Shown here piece by piece: positions 15,259 through 21,651 of a DNA stretch of 45,308 nucleotides (the stretch's first letter is position 1; every line of letters starts with the position of its first letter). Both the position numbers and the translations under genes were made by a program. The notes under the pieces were generated by a model. The model was not told the DNA's origin. It searched no databases and saw nothing but the letters and a program-made list of their open reading frames with translations. Origin of the DNA: Pseudomonadota bacterium. Its GTDB lineage: Bacteria > Pseudomonadota > Gammaproteobacteria > JAKAQQ01. The stretch spans positions 1-45,308 of the forward strand of contig JAKATI010000004.1 of the NCBI GenBank assembly GCA_021828045.1, written 5' to 3'.

Positions 15259-15816
15259 TCAGGGCTTGGGTGGTGCCAAGGGGTGCTGGGCCAGTACCCA
15301 GCGGGCCAAGGTTTCGGCTTGGGCCAAAGACAGTTGGGGATGGGCCGGCATGGCGATCCCCCCGGTCCACGGATTCCAGTAACCCACCCCTCCCTTGATG
15401 ATCTTGTGGGCCAGTTTCACAACGGCCGCCGCAACCTGCCCACGGAAGCGGTAGGCCACCCAGGCATAGGCCGGCCCCACCACTTTGCTATCGATGGCAT
15501 GACAGGCGAAACAGCCCTGGGCTGTCATGAAATGCCTGATCTCGGCCGGTGTCTTGAGAGCCGGGCCCTGGACAGTTGCCATCATAGGCGTCGCGGCGCC
15601 CTCCCCCGAAACGGATTTTGATTCCAGGCCGACCTGGCCCACTGGCCGCAGCCGCAGGTAGGCCTGCCGCTCGGCCAGGCGGGAAGACCCAAAACTTTCA
15701 TCACGGGACCGGATGGCAAGCCCATTCGCCAGGAAAATCAGGAGGACCGCAGTAACGAGCAGCGCCAGCAGGAAGATGGAAAAGGTCTGGATGAATTTTC
15801 GGTCTTGAAGATCCAT
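15259..15816 (-). CDS. Membrane-anchored monohaem cytochrome c (c551/c552-type domain)
   Basis: Starts MDLQDRKF; N-terminal TM helix; CFACH haem motif, VGPAY, distal Met in AMPAHP. The upstream part of the 558-aa ORF is antisense shadow of the malic enzyme. Confidence 0.9.
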   Translation of the reverse strand: MDLQDRKFIQTFSIFLLALLVTAVLLIFLANGLAIRSRDESFGSSRLAERQAYLRLRPVGQVGLESKSVSGEGAATPMMATVQGPALKTPAEIRHFMTAQGCFACHAIDSKVVGPAYAWVAYRFRGQVAAAVVKLAHKIIKGGVGYWNPWTGGIAMPAHPQLSLAQAETLARWVLAQHPLAPPKP

Positions 15817-16005: not shown

Positions 16006-17307
16006 ATGCAGATCCCGGAAATCCTGCTTGTCGAATCCGAACATCGGCCAGGCAGCTTGGGCCGGATTCTCACCGCAATCGGAGAGTGCGGTGTCGTGAT
16101 CGATCACCTCACGGCCGTCCGTCGCCACCAAGACAGGACCACTTGGGAGATCACGATCGAGATTGATGAGGAAACCGGCCGGAGAGTCACCGAACGGCTG
16201 GCCGCCTTGCCGAACGCGCGGCTTGTCGGCAAATCGGACCGCGTCTTCGATCGGCACCGTGGTGGCAAGATCGAGATGGTCGCCAAGGTCCCGCTCGACT
16301 CTCTCCAGCAGTTGCGTGACCTCTACACCCCGGGAGTGGCCCGCGTTTGCCTGGCCATCCGAGACGATCCCGAAAAGATCCGGGAATGGACCAACTACGG
16401 CAATAGTGTCGGGATCGTCACAAACGGAACGGCCATCCTGGGACTGGGAGCGATCGGGGCCCAGGCCGGACTGCCTGTGATGGAAGGGAAATCCATGATC
16501 TACAGCCGGATGGTCGGCCTCTCGGGGATCCCGGTGCTGCTCCGCGAAACTGAACCGGGAAAAATTGTGGACACCATATTGGCCATCGAAGGGAGTTTCG
16601 CCGCGATCCATCTGGAAGACATTGCGGCACCCGCCTGCTTCACCGTGACCCGGGCTCTCGAACAGGCGCTCGACAAGCCGGTCCTCCATGATGACCAGGA
16701 CGGAACAGCGGTGGTTACGCTGGCGGCCCTTCTCACGGCCGTGCGCAAGACCGGGATCAATCTCCATGAGGCGGTCGTGGGCCAGGTGGGACTGGGCGCG
16801 GCCGGAATCGGGATCGCCCGTCTCATCCGCGACTTTGGTGTACGTGACCTGATCGGAACGGACCGCCGGCCAGAAGCCCGCAACGAGTTCGAGCAGCTCG
16901 GAGGGACCCTCGTCACCCTGGAGAAGCTGATGCACGACGCCTCAATCGTGATTGCAACCACCGGGGTCAAGGATCTCATTGCTCCTGCCTCCATCCAGCC
17001 GGGCCAGATCATTTTTGCCCTGTCCAATCCCGAGCCGGAAATCTCGGCCCGACACGCACTGGAAGCCGGTGCGGCCTTTGCCACCGATGGACGCAGTGTC
17101 AACAACGCCTTGGGCTTTCCCGGCCTCTTCCGGGGCGCGCTCGATGCCCGGGCCCGCAGGTTCACGCGGGAGATGCTGCTCGCAGCCTCCTACCGAATGG
17201 CTGAACTCGCGCCGGACGGGGAGATCCTTCCGGATGTGCTCGACCCTGCTACACACGCGGCCGTGGCCCACGCGGTCAGCCAAGCCGCCAACCGGAAATC
17301 TCCTTGA
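16006..17307 (+). CDS. NAD(P)-dependent malic enzyme with N-terminal ACT domain
   Basis: HRGGKI, YTPGVARVC, GTAILGLG, PVMEGK, IHLEDIAAP, HDDQDGTA, GLGAAG, LSNPEPEI, NNALGFPGLFRG; ACT-like HRPGSLGRI. Confidence 0.92.
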   Translation: MQIPEILLVESEHRPGSLGRILTAIGECGVVIDHLTAVRRHQDRTTWEITIEIDEETGRRVTERLAALPNARLVGKSDRVFDRHRGGKIEMVAKVPLDSLQQLRDLYTPGVARVCLAIRDDPEKIREWTNYGNSVGIVTNGTAILGLGAIGAQAGLPVMEGKSMIYSRMVGLSGIPVLLRETEPGKIVDTILAIEGSFAAIHLEDIAAPACFTVTRALEQALDKPVLHDDQDGTAVVTLAALLTAVRKTGINLHEAVVGQVGLGAAGIGIARLIRDFGVRDLIGTDRRPEARNEFEQLGGTLVTLEKLMHDASIVIATTGVKDLIAPASIQPGQIIFALSNPEPEISARHALEAGAAFATDGRSVNNALGFPGLFRGALDARARRFTREMLLAASYRMAELAPDGEILPDVLDPATHAAVAHAVSQAANRKSP

Positions 17308-17345
17308 CATAAGTCAAGACTCCAACTTCAAAAACAGGCTAACAT
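17303..17345 (+). promoter_or_regulatory. FNR/CRP-family box and -10 element upstream of the cyc1-cyc2 genes
   Basis: cTTGAC-ATAA-GTCAAg palindrome (17303-17318) and TAACAT (17340-17345). Confidence 0.7.
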
Positions 17346-17382: not shown

Positions 17383-18009
17383 ATGAAACACCTCTTCATT
17401 GGATTTACCCTGATCCTCTTCGTATCCTGTCTCGGGAGAGCAGCGTCCGCCGCAACCCCACCGACACCCGCCCCTCCCCCCTCTCGTGTGCTCACCAGCT
17501 GCTACATGTGCCACAGCACCCACGGCAGCGACCCGCGCTTCGGTTTCATTCCCCGCCTAGCCCACCAAAGCAAAGTCTATATCGAGGAGCAGCTCAAGGC
17601 TTTCCGTGATGGCAGCCGCTCGGATCCACCGGGTGTGATGTACATGTGGCCGGTGAGTGAAGCGCTTAGCAACCGGGAAATCGTGGCGGTTGCCCAATGG
17701 TACGCTTCCCAGCCGCCCCCTCCGCCCCAGCCGGGTGGGCGTCTCAGTGCGGCGGGCAAGATCATCTTCCACCAAGGAATCCTGAAGCAGGATGTTCCGG
17801 CCTGCATGAGCTGCCATGGACCCGATGCCGCGGGGAGCGGCATTTATCCCCGCCTCGCAGGGCAGAACGCAGAATACCTGGAAGAGCAGCTTCGGTTCTT
17901 CAAGAGTGGTGTCCGCCATGACAAGAACGCCGACATCATGCACATGATCGCGATCCACCTGACGGACCGCCAGATCCGGGCGGTCGCCGAATACCTCACC
18001 ACCCTCTGA
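17383..18009 (+). CDS. cyc1: Dihaem cytochrome c4, Cyc1-like
   Basis: Signal peptide; CYMCH and CMSCH; PRLAHQ/PRLAGQ; the YMWPV motif recalled from Acidithiobacillus Cyc1; GGAGG RBS. Confidence 0.85.
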   Translation: MKHLFIGFTLILFVSCLGRAASAATPPTPAPPPSRVLTSCYMCHSTHGSDPRFGFIPRLAHQSKVYIEEQLKAFRDGSRSDPPGVMYMWPVSEALSNREIVAVAQWYASQPPPPPQPGGRLSAAGKIIFHQGILKQDVPACMSCHGPDAAGSGIYPRLAGQNAEYLEEQLRFFKSGVRHDKNADIMHMIAIHLTDRQIRAVAEYLTTL

Positions 18010-18062
18010 GTGAAATCCCCGAACCCGACCAGATCCCCGTTTCACCACCCGAGACAGTCTCC

Positions 18063-19508
18063 ATGAAGACGCGAGCGACCCCCACAAGCGTACATCCCGG
18101 ACACCACCTCATTCTGGCCGTGATTCTGGTTCTTGTGACCCTCGCATTCCCCCGACCGGCCCACGCCATCCCGAGTTATGCCCGGCAGACAGGCTGGTCC
18201 TGTTCGGTTTGCCACACGATCTTTCCGCAACTCACGCCGATCGGCCGGCTGTTCAAGCTGGGGGGCTATACCACCGCCAATTTGGCTGGCATGCAACAGC
18301 TCCGTCAGAAGCTCCGGCGGATGGCACCTTTGGCACTGGACCGGGATCCACCACTATCAATCATGATCCAAGCGTCGGACTCGTTCATCCAGGGGGGGGA
18401 TGCCAACCAATTCGGCTCGGGCGGGACCACGGGTCAGGGGTCTGTCGAATTTCCAGAGCAGGTGAGCCTCTTCTATGCCGGGCGGATCGCGAGCCACATC
18501 GGCGCATTCTTCCACCTCACGTACACGCATAGCGGCGCTTTCGGGCAGGATGATTCCGACATCCGTTGGGCGGAACACGAGAACGAGCCGGATGGCAGCA
18601 CTCTCATCTACGGCATCGACATCAACAACACACCGACCGAACCGGATCCCTGGAATTCGGTGCCCGACTGGAACTGGCCGTTTTACACCTCCAACTACTC
18701 ACCGCTTCGGGATATCCCGGCACCGTACGTCGTCCAAGCCAGTGGTGCCAGCGAACCGGTCGCCGGACTCGGCGGATATCTAGCCTATCTTTTCGGCCGG
18801 GGACAGGATCACTGGCTTTACCTTGAAGCGGATCTCTACCGGTCCGGCGTCGGGATCGGCGCTGGCACAAACCAAGTCTACGGCCCCTATACTTTCGGCC
18901 CGATCCGGAACATTGCCCCCTATCTCCGGATTGCCTTCGAACAGAACTATGCAGCCTGGAACTGGGAGGTGGGCGCACTCGGCATGGATACCAACGTGTA
19001 CCCGACGACCGTCGCCTCCGGTGCGAGCGACCGTCTTCTCGACTACGGACTCGATAGCCAGGTCCAGTACCTGGGGCTGAGCGGCGACCAGATCTGGACG
19101 GCGCATGTGAGCTGGATCGGGGAAAACCAGTACTGGGAACCGGTTCCGTCGATCGGTTTCAAGCCACATGCGGAAGACACACTCGATACGGTCAATGTCA
19201 ACGGCCAGTACCTGCTCAAGCACCGCTATGGTGCCGGCTTGGGTTACTTCTGGGTCTGGGGCAACCCGGATCTCGCGCTTTACGGACCCGTGACCGGCAA
19301 TCCCGCAGGACTCGTGAGTGCCAATGGAAGTCCCGACACAAACGGGTTCATCCTCGAACTGGACTACCTCGAGGCCCAGAACGTGGAGCTTTCGCTACAA
19401 TACACCGGCTTCAATCAATATCTGGGGGCCAGCTCGGACTACAACGGCCAAGGCCGGAATGCGTCCAGCAACAACTTCCTCTCCCTCCTCATGTGGCTGG
19501 CGTTCTAG
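18063..19508 (+). CDS. cyc2: Cyc2-family outer-membrane cytochrome c-porin fusion (candidate Fe(II) oxidase)
   Basis: Signal ...AHA then IPSYARQTGWSCSVCHTIFPQLTPIGRLFKLGGY, the Cyc2 N-terminal signature; about 400 aa of beta-strand-patterned sequence; C-terminal Phe. Confidence 0.92.
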   Translation: MKTRATPTSVHPGHHLILAVILVLVTLAFPRPAHAIPSYARQTGWSCSVCHTIFPQLTPIGRLFKLGGYTTANLAGMQQLRQKLRRMAPLALDRDPPLSIMIQASDSFIQGGDANQFGSGGTTGQGSVEFPEQVSLFYAGRIASHIGAFFHLTYTHSGAFGQDDSDIRWAEHENEPDGSTLIYGIDINNTPTEPDPWNSVPDWNWPFYTSNYSPLRDIPAPYVVQASGASEPVAGLGGYLAYLFGRGQDHWLYLEADLYRSGVGIGAGTNQVYGPYTFGPIRNIAPYLRIAFEQNYAAWNWEVGALGMDTNVYPTTVASGASDRLLDYGLDSQVQYLGLSGDQIWTAHVSWIGENQYWEPVPSIGFKPHAEDTLDTVNVNGQYLLKHRYGAGLGYFWVWGNPDLALYGPVTGNPAGLVSANGSPDTNGFILELDYLEAQNVELSLQYTGFNQYLGASSDYNGQGRNASSNNFLSLLMWLAF

Positions 19509-19769
19509 GAGGCACGGAGACATGACGATCTCATCCCACCCGAGGACCATTTACCCATCCAAGTAGACTGACGGAACCCTACGTCCGTACCGAGCCCCGG
19601 GACCGGGGTACTTCTCACTTCTTCGTGCGGTTGGACATGTCGGAGTGGCGGGTGCAGCACATCTGTCTCCTCCGGAGATCACCCACCGAGGTGAACAAGA
19701 TGCAGGCATCAAGGGCCGCCCTCGGTGACAACCGCGTCGCATCCAGACCGGACCAGACCTTCCAGACGT

Positions 19770-19965
19770 AATTCTTCTGCTCCGTGGCGAGGCACAGCCT
19801 TCCGTGAGCGCATCCCCCTCTTGTAAGTCCATGCCTTCATCGTCGACCACGCACACATTCGCCCAAGACCGATGCTGCCCACGGGCACGACGACCCTCCC
19901 AGGCGGCAAACACATGCTCGACCTGCACACGCACTCGGGACCTCGTGCGATTCCTGCGCCTCCGC
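19770..19965 (-). pseudogene. IS5-family transposase C-terminal remnant
   Basis: RNRTRSRVRVQVEHVFA, then a frameshifted VGSIGLGR...AWTY; matches the IS5 R..VEH.F motif; boundaries approximate. Confidence 0.6.
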
Positions 19966-20033
19966 GGCACTTTGACAAAACTCGTAACCACGATCCGACC
20001 GCTGTTGGGCCTCATCCCCTGTGCAGCCAAATT

Positions 20034-20532
20034 GTCTCTGTTGAATTCCGAGTGGATACGCATCATGGATGGAATACCACCAGAGAACCCGATGAGGAGT
20101 GGCGGTGATGGCGGAAGTGAAGCTCTTTGAGTCCTTGGGGATGGAGACGCCCTGGTTTGTGCGGGAGTGGCCTTTAATGCCACGGACCGGACGTTGGCAT
20201 TGCCGTGGGCTTCAGGACCGGCACACGGTTTTGGGTCACGGGTGAAGTCTCCCGATGGGGCCGTGCGCCAGATTGAACCCGCCTTTGGTGGCCCGCTTCG
20301 TACGCTCTCACCCCGAGGCATCATCGCCTGGATCCAGATGCGTGTCACCAACGGGTCCCCCTGAACGTTCTGAACGGGCTATTCCGGGCCGCCCAGCGCA
20401 AAGCCCGCGGTCACGATCTTCTCCACCATCCGCACCGGATCTTCCTCAAATTCATCGGCACCGAAACCAGGGGGATCCCGTTGGAACTGGCCAAGCACCA
20501 TCTCACCAACCTGCTACCATTCCCAAACAGCC
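20034..20532 (+). mobile_element. Internally deleted, frameshifted ISL3-family element
   Basis: Decayed left end GTCTCTGTTGAATTCCGAGTGG; N-terminal MAEVKLFESLGMETPWFV; C-terminal GIIAWIQMRVTNG...LNGLFRAAQRKARG; right end ...CCAAACAGCC; only about 500 bp. Confidence 0.65.
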
Positions 20533-20550
20533 CCTTGATGGTCCCACAAT

Positions 20551-21651
20551 TTGTACACAGGCGTGACTGCAGGTCCGGAACCTCCGTCTGGCACTATTCC
20601 CTTCGAGGCCCGGGCCGACGGTGGCTTCTGCCGCTGGCTCCTCCAGTCCCGGAGCACGGTCGCGGTCAGCACCTATCAGGCCGGGGTCCTGGCCTTTTTC
20701 TCGTGGAACGGAATGCAAATCTCGGTCTTCCTGCGTCGCTTCGAGAAGGTGATGGGATTGGACTGGGATGGGAATCGACTCGTGGTGGCGACCCGCCATG
20801 CACTCGTGATCCATGCCAACTCCCCGGTCTTGGCCCGCCGGTTCCGCGATAACAACAAATATGATGCCCTTTACCTTCCCAGGGCGAGCTACCACTACCC
20901 GGACCTCCACGTGCATGACGTGGGCCTCGTCCCGGATTCGGTCTGGATGGTCAACACCCGTTTTAACTGCCTTTCCCATCCGAGCGACCGGATGACCTTC
21001 GAACCCATCTGGTTCCCTCCTTTCATCACGGATCTCGTCCCGGAGGACCGCTGCCACCTGAACGGGTTGGCCATGCGGGATGGCAAGCCGGCATTCGTCA
21101 CTGCGATCGCCGAAACGAACACCGCCGGAGAGTGGCGTGACCACAAGGCAAAAGGAGGGATCGTCATCGAGGTCGAGTCACGCGAAATCGTGGCCCGTGA
21201 TTTGTCCATGCCGCACTCACCGCGCTGGCATGAGGGTGCGCTCTATGTGCTGAACTCCGGCTCAGGCGAACTCCTCCGGATCAATCCACAGGATGGATCC
21301 AGGGAGGTCATCTGCCGCCTGACGGGGTACCTCCGGGGGCTCACCTTCCATGGGCCCCATGCGCTGGTCGGCCTGTGCCAGGCACGGGAGACCGCCCTTT
21401 TCGGTGGTGTGCCGGTTGCCGAGACTGGCAAGCGCCTGCTGTGCGGGGTTGCGCTGGTGGATCTCCGTACCGGCCATACCGCAGGTTTCCTGGAGATCAC
21501 CTCGGGCTGCACCGAACTGTTCGACCTCCGGGTGCTCCGGGGAGAGGTTCGACCTGCCATCGTCCACATCGACAGTCCCGATGCGAAAGAGGCCATTGCA
21601 TTGCCCCACACTCATTACTGGTTGCGGCCGGAAAACATCATCAAGGACTGA
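20551..21651 (+). CDS. TIGR03032/DUF4915-like conserved protein
   Basis: STYQAG, YDALYLPR, VNTRFNCL, PEDRCHLNGLA, LSMPHSPRW, GYLRGL; start may be GTG at 20563. Confidence 0.85.
   Translation: MYTGVTAGPEPPSGTIPFEARADGGFCRWLLQSRSTVAVSTYQAGVLAFFSWNGMQISVFLRRFEKVMGLDWDGNRLVVATRHALVIHANSPVLARRFRDNNKYDALYLPRASYHYPDLHVHDVGLVPDSVWMVNTRFNCLSHPSDRMTFEPIWFPPFITDLVPEDRCHLNGLAMRDGKPAFVTAIAETNTAGEWRDHKAKGGIVIEVESREIVARDLSMPHSPRWHEGALYVLNSGSGELLRINPQDGSREVICRLTGYLRGLTFHGPHALVGLCQARETALFGGVPVAETGKRLLCGVALVDLRTGHTAGFLEITSGCTELFDLRVLRGEVRPAIVHIDSPDAKEAIALPHTHYWLRPENIIKD

Follow-up and report, generated by a model that had tools for sequence, protein, structure and literature searches.

In Acidithiobacillus, the outer-membrane cytochrome Cyc2 and its periplasmic partner Cyc1 are encoded in the rus operon, with the order cyc2-cyc1-cup-coxBACD-rus (e.g., locus L024 of A. 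ferrivorans), and the Cyc2 of A. ferrooxidans, a member of Cluster 2, is a demonstrated Fe(II) oxidase according to PMC7029218 and PMC8406198. Moreover, a stand-alone cyc2/cyc1 pair is already in print for this genus, as stated in PMC10654088. This second pair, known as Cyc2B/Cyc1B in A. ferrooxidans, also consists of two genes without rus, cup, or cox beside them. Here, we describe a cyc1-cyc2 pair of the stand-alone kind located in 45,308 nucleotides of DNA (JAKATI010000004.1, assembly GCA_021828045.1), a stretch hereafter called the window, which makes up the entire contig C100 in a metagenome-assembled genome (MAG). The MAG belongs to an uncultured acid-mine family of Gammaproteobacteria that, among the 40 related genomes searched, comprises nine genomes in three genera with sizes of 1.2-2.5 megabases (Mb), the remaining genomes sharing with the MAG only its class and none of them its order.

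The pair of the window resembles each of the described systems in part. Its Cyc2 is 42-45% identical to that of the Acidithiobacillus stand-alone pair (locus L023), carries the same haem-site signature, and falls in a neighbouring clade. However, the order of the Acidithiobacillus genes is cyc2-cyc1, whereas that of the window is cyc1-cyc2, and the Acidithiobacillus host is an autotroph with rusticyanin elsewhere in its genome, unlike the MAG, which is devoid of rusticyanin. The Cyc2 and Cyc1 of the rus operon are homologous to the window proteins as well (39-41% identity for Cyc2), but the window pair shows the reversed gene order, has no adjacent cup, cox, or rus gene, and lies in a genome without rusticyanin; in addition, the only CoxA of the MAG, encoded in another contig, is 36% identical to that of the rus operon. 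Pairs from Steroidobacteraceae and from other soil, sediment, and mine MAGs also stand alone, in hosts that are not known iron oxidisers, yet they are 33-40% identical, keep the order cyc2-cyc1, and occupy a separate part of the tree, with GM[AP]C and PELTPFGR at the haem site where the window Cyc2 has GWSC and PQLTPIGR. Finally, the Cluster 1 Cyc2 of Mariprofundus PV-1 and Gallionellaceae likewise combines a signal peptide, a single haem, and a 16-strand porin, and its electrons reach the oxidase without rusticyanin, as they would in the MAG, according to PMC8406198 and PMC7029218; the window protein probably belongs to a different cluster.

Identity of the cyc1 and cyc2 products

The gene at positions 18063-19508 of the forward strand codes for a Cyc2-family fused monohaem cytochrome-porin of 481 residues. 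According to Keffer et al. (PMC8406198), Cyc2 proteins are recognized by a signal peptide, one CXXCH motif, a length of at least 365 residues, and a 16-strand porin, together with the motif AXPXFAR[Q/K][T/Y] just before CXXCH and PXL four residues after it. All these features are present in the window protein, with one conservative change. Besides its length of 481 residues, it contains a single CXXCH, namely CSVCH at residue 47, in the surroundings AIPSYARQTGWSCSVCHTIFPQLTPIGRLFKL, and this haem site is followed by TIF and then by PQL, which corresponds to PXL. The N-terminus, MKTRATPTSVHPGHHLILAVILVLVTLAFPRPAHA before IPSYARQ, was judged by eye to be a signal peptide, its hydrophobic core being modelled as a helix between residues 12 and 26. 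The change affects the upstream motif, which reads AIPSYARQT, with Tyr in the place of Phe and at the same distance from CXXCH as in all homologues. Tyr occupies that position in nine of 89 homologue rows, and Phe is found in the rest of the family, even in the 93%-identical protein of locus L011. The screen reported in PMC8406198 used PXFAR[QK][TY]; applied literally, it would drop the window sequence because of the Phe-to-Tyr change, a small practical warning for literal motif screens in the field.

The fold and the homologues of the protein agree with this identity. The AlphaFold2 model, built from an alignment of 56 sequences, has a mean predicted local distance difference test (pLDDT) score of 76.8 and a predicted template modelling score of 0.78, and shows 16 strands of at least 9 residues between residues 98 and 480, plus one bridge of three residues, while the C-terminus, LMWLAF, ends in Phe. 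A Foldseek search with the model retrieved 238 matches at E<=1e-3, led by AlgE (1.2e-9) and OmpF-type porins, with OmpF, Omp32, and PorB among them. The sequence has no match in Pfam, NCBIfam, or the PDB sequences, a result that is due to missing models and not to novelty. Among 8000 candidates scored from a large protein collection, 360 are homologues at E<=1e-3. A 'cytochrome C' of A. ferrooxidans matches with 100% coverage (E 6.6e-108, 42% identity), the identity to the Acidithiobacillus copies ranges from 41 to 45%, and the rus-operon Cyc2 of A. ferrivorans gives 41% (E 3.5e-100). PMC7029218 assigns the Cyc2 of Acidithiobacillus to Cluster 2, and the window protein, judging from its nearness to Acidithiobacillus, may tentatively be placed there as well.

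Directly upstream, the gene at 17383-18009 on the same strand encodes a dihaem cytochrome c4, predicted to be periplasmic. Its reading frame opens at 17344 (221 amino acids), and the probable start is the ATG at 17383, preceded by GGAGG 7 nucleotides before it, which yields a product of 208 amino acids beginning with MKHLFIGF and with a signal-like N-terminus. Two class-I haem domains, each with its CXXCH (CYMCH and CMSCH at residues 53 and 154 in the numbering of the long frame), a size of about 200 amino acids, and an exported-type sequence are the traits of cytochromes c4, and the motif MYMWPV is present too. The protein matches Pfam Cytochrom_C (5.9e-16), and its closest solved structure is 1h1o_A, annotated as 'cytochrome c-552' (E 9.5e-47, residues 29-208), followed by other c4 cytochromes. 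We take 1h1o to be the c4 of A. ferrooxidans. The original prediction, made from the letters of the window, had described a dihaem c4 with CYMCH, CMSCH, and YMWPV located 53 base pairs upstream of a cytochrome-porin fusion with a long barrel and a terminal Phe, and both genes turned out to be as described.

The two genes are separated by a spacer of 53 base pairs (18010-18062, forward strand). They are likely to be co-transcribed, since a promoter and terminator scan found no terminator-like site on the forward strand between them. Upstream of cyc1, a weak candidate promoter can be recognized by eye at 17304-17332 on the forward strand, with a perfect TTGACA (17304-17309), a spacer of 17 nucleotides, and a weak TTCAAA; the consensus scan did not report it and, around the pair, gave nothing above shuffled expectation. 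Read-through from the preceding malic-enzyme-like gene, which ends at 17307, is an equally possible source of the transcript.

Distribution, gene order and descent of the pair

One genome per species was scanned for Cyc2, which gave at least 586 matching places, and the best 80 loci, three of them from this family, were kept for comparison. In 66 of the 77 non-family loci of this best set, a cyc1 homologue lies immediately downstream of cyc2, and in 11 there is no cyc1 within reach. The full rus operon accompanies cyc2 in two of the 77 (A. ferrivorans L024 and the locus L029 of another MAG), and cox genes lie beside it in one more. Because 66 of the 77 loci are paired and only two belong to a rus operon, the stand-alone cyc2-cyc1 pair is the usual form, the rule and not the exception. 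The view that a minimal stand-alone module is unusual does not survive this comparison; it is a common form already described in print, and its novelty had been overstated. Besides, Table 1 of PMC8357290 includes mine-drainage MAGs with Cyc2 and without carbon fixation.

What is new here is more modest, namely the inverted order fixed in one uncultured acid-mine family, the sister position of this family to both Acidithiobacillus pairs, and the Phe-to-Tyr change. The pair is kept in seven of the nine family genomes, representing the three genera, and the window and all nine family rows, the latter from six further genomes, have cyc1 ahead of cyc2, as no other row compared does. The order cyc1-cyc2 has been seen only in this family (seven genomes, three genera), and it is real and far beyond chance. 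In a broken locus outside the family (L091), cyc1-like matches flank cyc2 on both sides. A literature search for the phrase 'cyc1-cyc2' returned no iron-related paper, a faint hint that the inverted order may be unpublished, and PMC13466987 and PMC4438317 contained nothing on this lineage or on stand-alone pairs. The reversed order and the lack of adjacent rusticyanin and cox genes had been noticed from the sequence, and this reading is upheld: cyc1 precedes cyc2, and family searches of the window proteins found no cup, cox, or rusticyanin gene in the window.

In a careful maximum-likelihood tree of 57 Cyc2 rows, the family clade is supported by 100/99, the Acidithiobacillus-type clade by 100/100, and the separation of both from all others by 100/100. 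The same picture emerges from a quick tree that includes all 89 rows. The tree program warned that long branches meet at the grouping of the family with Acidithiobacillus. This grouping is backed, however, by two independent observations: the signature QTGWSC...PQLTP[IM]GR that both share around the haem site and a Cyc1 tree of matching topology, whose supports are 99, 95, and 98, the last for the separation of both clades from the others. Since the Cyc1 and Cyc2 trees agree, the pair appears to have been inherited as a unit. The original prediction had proposed a phylogeny and a structure as checks, and the protein falls inside the Cyc2 tree, sister to Acidithiobacillus at 100/100, with a modelled porin fold.

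Within the Acidithiobacillus-type clade, the stand-alone copies (L021, L023, and the protein P0132 of A. ferrooxidans ATCC 23270) split from the rus-linked side at 99/95 and 99/94. Judging from their stand-alone context, L023 and P0132 probably correspond to the published 'Cyc2B'. The chromosomal locus L023, from A. ferruginosus CF3, consists of a bare cyc2-cyc1 pair followed by a cation-efflux gene, a DEAD-box helicase, and phoBR-pstS, and the rus-linked cyc2 copy of the same strain is found on another replicon. With the rooting used, the family clade would branch before the split of these paralogues and thus be the closest known outgroup to both, a reference for distinguishing oxidation-linked from reduction-linked residues. 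Close kinship of the host to Acidithiobacillus was considered as the cause of the sister position and rejected. The RpoB of the MAG is 66-67% identical to that of Acidithiobacillus, and full-length RpoB matches to members of 22 further families of the class, which with few exceptions lack Cyc2, range from 57 to 72%, with many at 68-72%. As RpoB does not place Acidithiobacillus any nearer than other class members, kinship is not an obvious explanation, and lateral transfer of the pair among acidophiles is plausible, judging from this crude comparison of a single gene.

Host lineage and direction of electron flow

The MAG has 1.69 Mb in 112 contigs and 62% G+C, and it is 90% complete with 0.45% contamination. 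The stretch is present in 12 metagenome DNA runs from six studies labelled as mine drainage, sediment, and mine tailings, one of which may be the source, and a homologue with 74% identity is named as a mine drainage metagenome protein. Besides the pair, the window codes for an acyl-CoA dehydrogenase, a thiolase, an acyl-CoA synthetase, a fused 2-oxoacid dehydrogenase E1, and a 5-oxoprolinase-type CT_C_D protein, in keeping with the fatty-acid, oxoacid, and oxoproline catabolism first read from its open reading frames. Genome-wide family searches over the nine family genomes found no RuBisCO large subunit, no PRK family member, no rusticyanin over the cut-off, and no SoxB in any of them, and no other searched lithotrophic marker turned up. 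The Pfam model used for PRK, a family that also covers uridine kinase, did match in 11 of 14 control genomes. Exactly one haem-copper oxidase, of the aa3 type, occurs in each of the nine genomes, 2-oxoglutarate dehydrogenase E1 in seven, and cytochrome bd in five, the MAG being included in both latter groups. Because of these counts, the lineage is supported as a heterotroph-looking acid-mine gammaproteobacterium without rusticyanin, as seen in draft genomes and with the Calvin cycle as the carbon-fixation route searched. The suggestion of a pathway without rusticyanin in a heterotroph-looking organism thus stands.

The genes that the original prediction had proposed to look for were partly recovered in the MAG: coxBAC and the cytochrome b and c1 genes were found, whereas rus and RuBisCO were not, and the bc1 Rieske subunit was not found in the assembly. 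The aa3 oxidase is encoded by a coxB-coxA-coxC cluster with ctaA in contig C58, which is not the window contig. The best score against the rusticyanin model was 23.9 bits, far from the cut-off of 146.7, and it belongs to the only cupredoxin match, a CopD-cupredoxin fusion adjoining CopC. The cytochrome b and c1 genes lie together in contig C46 (L006 5641-7847). The Rieske subunit is present in seven of the eight relatives; in one of them, G001, of the same genus, its gene is unlinked from petBC, and the corresponding region is absent from the MAG assembly. The idea that a missing Rieske subunit would indicate an aa3 oxidase fed only by iron was rejected on these grounds.

The haem-barrel fusion, the c4 gene 53 bases away, and the single aa3 oxidase together point to a conduit for electrons that would link iron outside the cell with the respiratory chain, and cyc1 and cyc2 would form a two-component iron redox module. 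Cyc2 would be exported and bear one c-type haem on a short N-terminal domain, the remaining ~385 residues folding as a 16-strand barrel presumably inserted in the outer membrane. As the haem domain is fused to this barrel, the haem could be reached from both sides of the membrane. Cyc1 would be a soluble dihaem c4 of the periplasm that docks on the periplasmic face of Cyc2. With inward flow, soluble Fe(II) of acid mine water would be oxidised at Cyc2, and the electrons would pass to Cyc1, perhaps via small cytochromes of the c551 type, and on to the single aa3 oxidase without rusticyanin, so that a heterotroph would gain extra proton-motive force (lithoheterotrophy). A route of this kind, from Cyc2 through a periplasmic cytochrome to the oxidase without rusticyanin, is the standard model of neutrophilic iron oxidisers. 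The most likely reading, with a probability of roughly 0.5 for this direction and role, is that the pair would feed electrons from Fe(II) to aa3 as an energy supplement. It is favoured by the closest Cyc2 clade, which is that of acidophilic iron oxidisers, by a habitat rich in soluble Fe(II), and by the Fe(II) oxidase activity known for the Acidithiobacillus protein.

Several points weigh against Fe(II) oxidation as the role of the pair. The N-terminal haem domain is poorly modelled, with pLDDT below 50 for residues 29-52. A heterotroph has no need of iron for energy, and a cyc2 match is missing in two of the nine family genomes, G005 (94% complete) and G007 (65% complete), so that the pair is dispensable in the family. 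As a separate observation, the same two genomes also lack a match to 2-oxoglutarate dehydrogenase E1, and, given the completeness of G005, the joint absence may reflect real divergence within its genus. Furthermore, Cyc2B/Cyc1B, the stand-alone pair of Acidithiobacillus, rises in anaerobic Fe(III) respiration according to PMC7735108 and PMC8790237, and the authors of PMC8406198 allow for further functions of Cyc2 and regard much of Cluster 2 as unverified. Finally, the sister group of the family clade contains both Acidithiobacillus paralogues, and therefore homology cannot tell which role is shared. The iron-oxidation module of the original prediction stands, consequently, as a genuine Cyc1/Cyc2 pair; its proposed direction is a reading that has to compete with the Fe(III) reduction to which the stand-alone Acidithiobacillus paralogues have been linked.

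Outward flow is less likely but has to be taken seriously. In this case, electrons from organics would pass through quinol, bc1, Cyc1, and Cyc2 to soluble extracellular Fe(III), so that the cell could respire in micro-oxic or anoxic settings. At low pH, Fe(III) accepts electrons at a high potential, the bd oxidase of the MAG suggests low-oxygen life, and its cytochromes b and c1 would supply part of the route, although the Rieske subunit, present in nearly all the relatives, was not found in the MAG assembly. The title of a work cited in PMC10654088 calls Fe(III) reduction by acidophilic heterotrophs widespread. The two-gene cluster Cyc2B/Cyc1B of A. ferrooxidans has been found in anaerobic oxidation of S0 or H2 with Fe(III) reduction, as reported by Kucera et al. 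(PMC7735108) and by Malik and Hedrich (PMC8790237), after Norris et al. 2018, and the A. ferrooxidans protein nearest to that of the window, P0132, groups with the stand-alone copy that is not linked to rus. Nevertheless, the family clade would branch off ahead of the paralogue split and stands no nearer to Cyc2B than to the Cyc2 of the rus operon, and the role of Cyc2B, as presented in PMC7735108, is based on abundance data and not on a demonstrated reductase activity.

A role beyond iron energy, such as detoxification of Fe(II) at the surface, redox sensing, or the use of another extracellular substrate, seems quite improbable. Cyc2 homologues are indeed widespread in genomes not known as those of iron oxidisers, since many of the at least 586 matches come from MAGs of Steroidobacteraceae, Alphaproteobacteria, Binatia, and Acidobacteriota; the authors of PMC8406198 dropped many sequences from Burkholderia, Ralstonia, and Xanthomonas and considered additional functions possible, and the dispensability of the pair within the family is compatible with such a role. 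However, acidophilic iron oxidisers make up the nearest clade, the DNA is found in iron-rich mine waters, the haem-site motifs are fully kept, and the pairing with a c4, with a direct route to the oxidase, fits respiration. It is still far less credible that the organism is an autotroph of the usual iron-oxidising kind, with genes for carbon fixation and rusticyanin that escaped binning. The MAG is, in fact, 90% complete in 112 contigs, but RuBisCO, PRK, and rusticyanin over the cut-off are absent from all nine family genomes, four of which are at least 94% complete, and seven of the nine have 2-oxoglutarate dehydrogenase E1, the Calvin cycle being the carbon-fixation route covered by the searches.

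Should the pair prove active, heterotrophs with small genomes would take part, alongside the classical autotrophs, in the turnover of iron in mine drainage, through either Fe(II) oxidation or Fe(III) reduction, which bears on models of acid mine drainage and on remediation. A broader form of the Fe(II)-oxidation reading is rather doubtful: that a deeply branching acid-mine family of obligate organotrophs with genomes of ~2 Mb, without Calvin cycle or rusticyanin, harvests Fe(II) at low pH via Cyc2, Cyc1, and aa3 only, and that its inverted pair, as the nearest outgroup of both Acidithiobacillus pairs, would indicate that the rus operon was built around a laterally moving two-gene module.

Flanking genes and further observations

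The genes around the pair in the family are housekeeping genes that differ by genus. In two genera, ubiK, a small cytochrome c, and a malic-enzyme-like gene lie upstream, and in the third one the pair is flanked by an MFS transporter and a NUDIX gene. In the window, the small cytochrome c is a membrane-anchored class-I protein of the c551/c552 type encoded on the reverse strand at 15259-15708, 1.7 kilobases (kb) upstream of the pair (Cytochrom_C 2.8e-5), and its closest solved relatives are c-551/c-552 proteins, from E 3.1e-17. It is kept in two of the three genera, with orthologues in the same place in loci L020 and L025, and a paralogue is encoded in contig C38 of the MAG. It is a possible further carrier and a putative member of the module. 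Directly upstream of cyc1, at 16006-17307 on the forward strand, an ACT domain is fused to a short malic-enzyme-like protein (433 amino acids), which falls far short of the NCBIfam malic enzyme cut-offs and lies beside the pair in two genera.

Downstream, ~1 kb after cyc2 (19509-20550) contains no convincing open reading frame, no Rfam match, and no counterpart in relatives, Rfam matches in the window being tRNAs only. A piece of 114 bases in this gap is 77% like a stretch of contig C43, nothing else in the gap is repeated elsewhere in the genome, and in G001 the gap from cyc2 to the next gene is ~218 base pairs. That next gene, at 20551-21651 on the forward strand, belongs to the DUF4915/TIGR03032 family (E about 1e-110), whose function is unknown; it is also found downstream of the pair in G001, and a 42% match occupies this place in G002. 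In G004, a short cyc2 fragment (L019/L020 6361-6459), 58-64% identical to residues 305-340 and interrupted by stop codons, follows the intact cyc2 at a distance of ~1.9 kb, with a HipA-type toxin-antitoxin pair in between; it has probably been left by a second copy.

Other observations concern the rest of the MAG. Where petA would be expected, a VanY gene occurs on the opposite strand, both in contig C46 of the MAG (L006 5641-7847) and in contig C15 of G001 (L104 4930-5652), and the sole Rieske-domain match of the MAG is a protein of 102 amino acids in a suf-like cluster of contig C45. In contig C3, a TnpB-like frame carries both an IS200-type Y1 transposase domain and a Cas12f1-like TNB domain (L008 8-1894), and near it lies a gene for an exported protein of 201 amino acids (L008 2608-3213), which has one CXXCH and a match to cytochrome P460 (6.1e-7).

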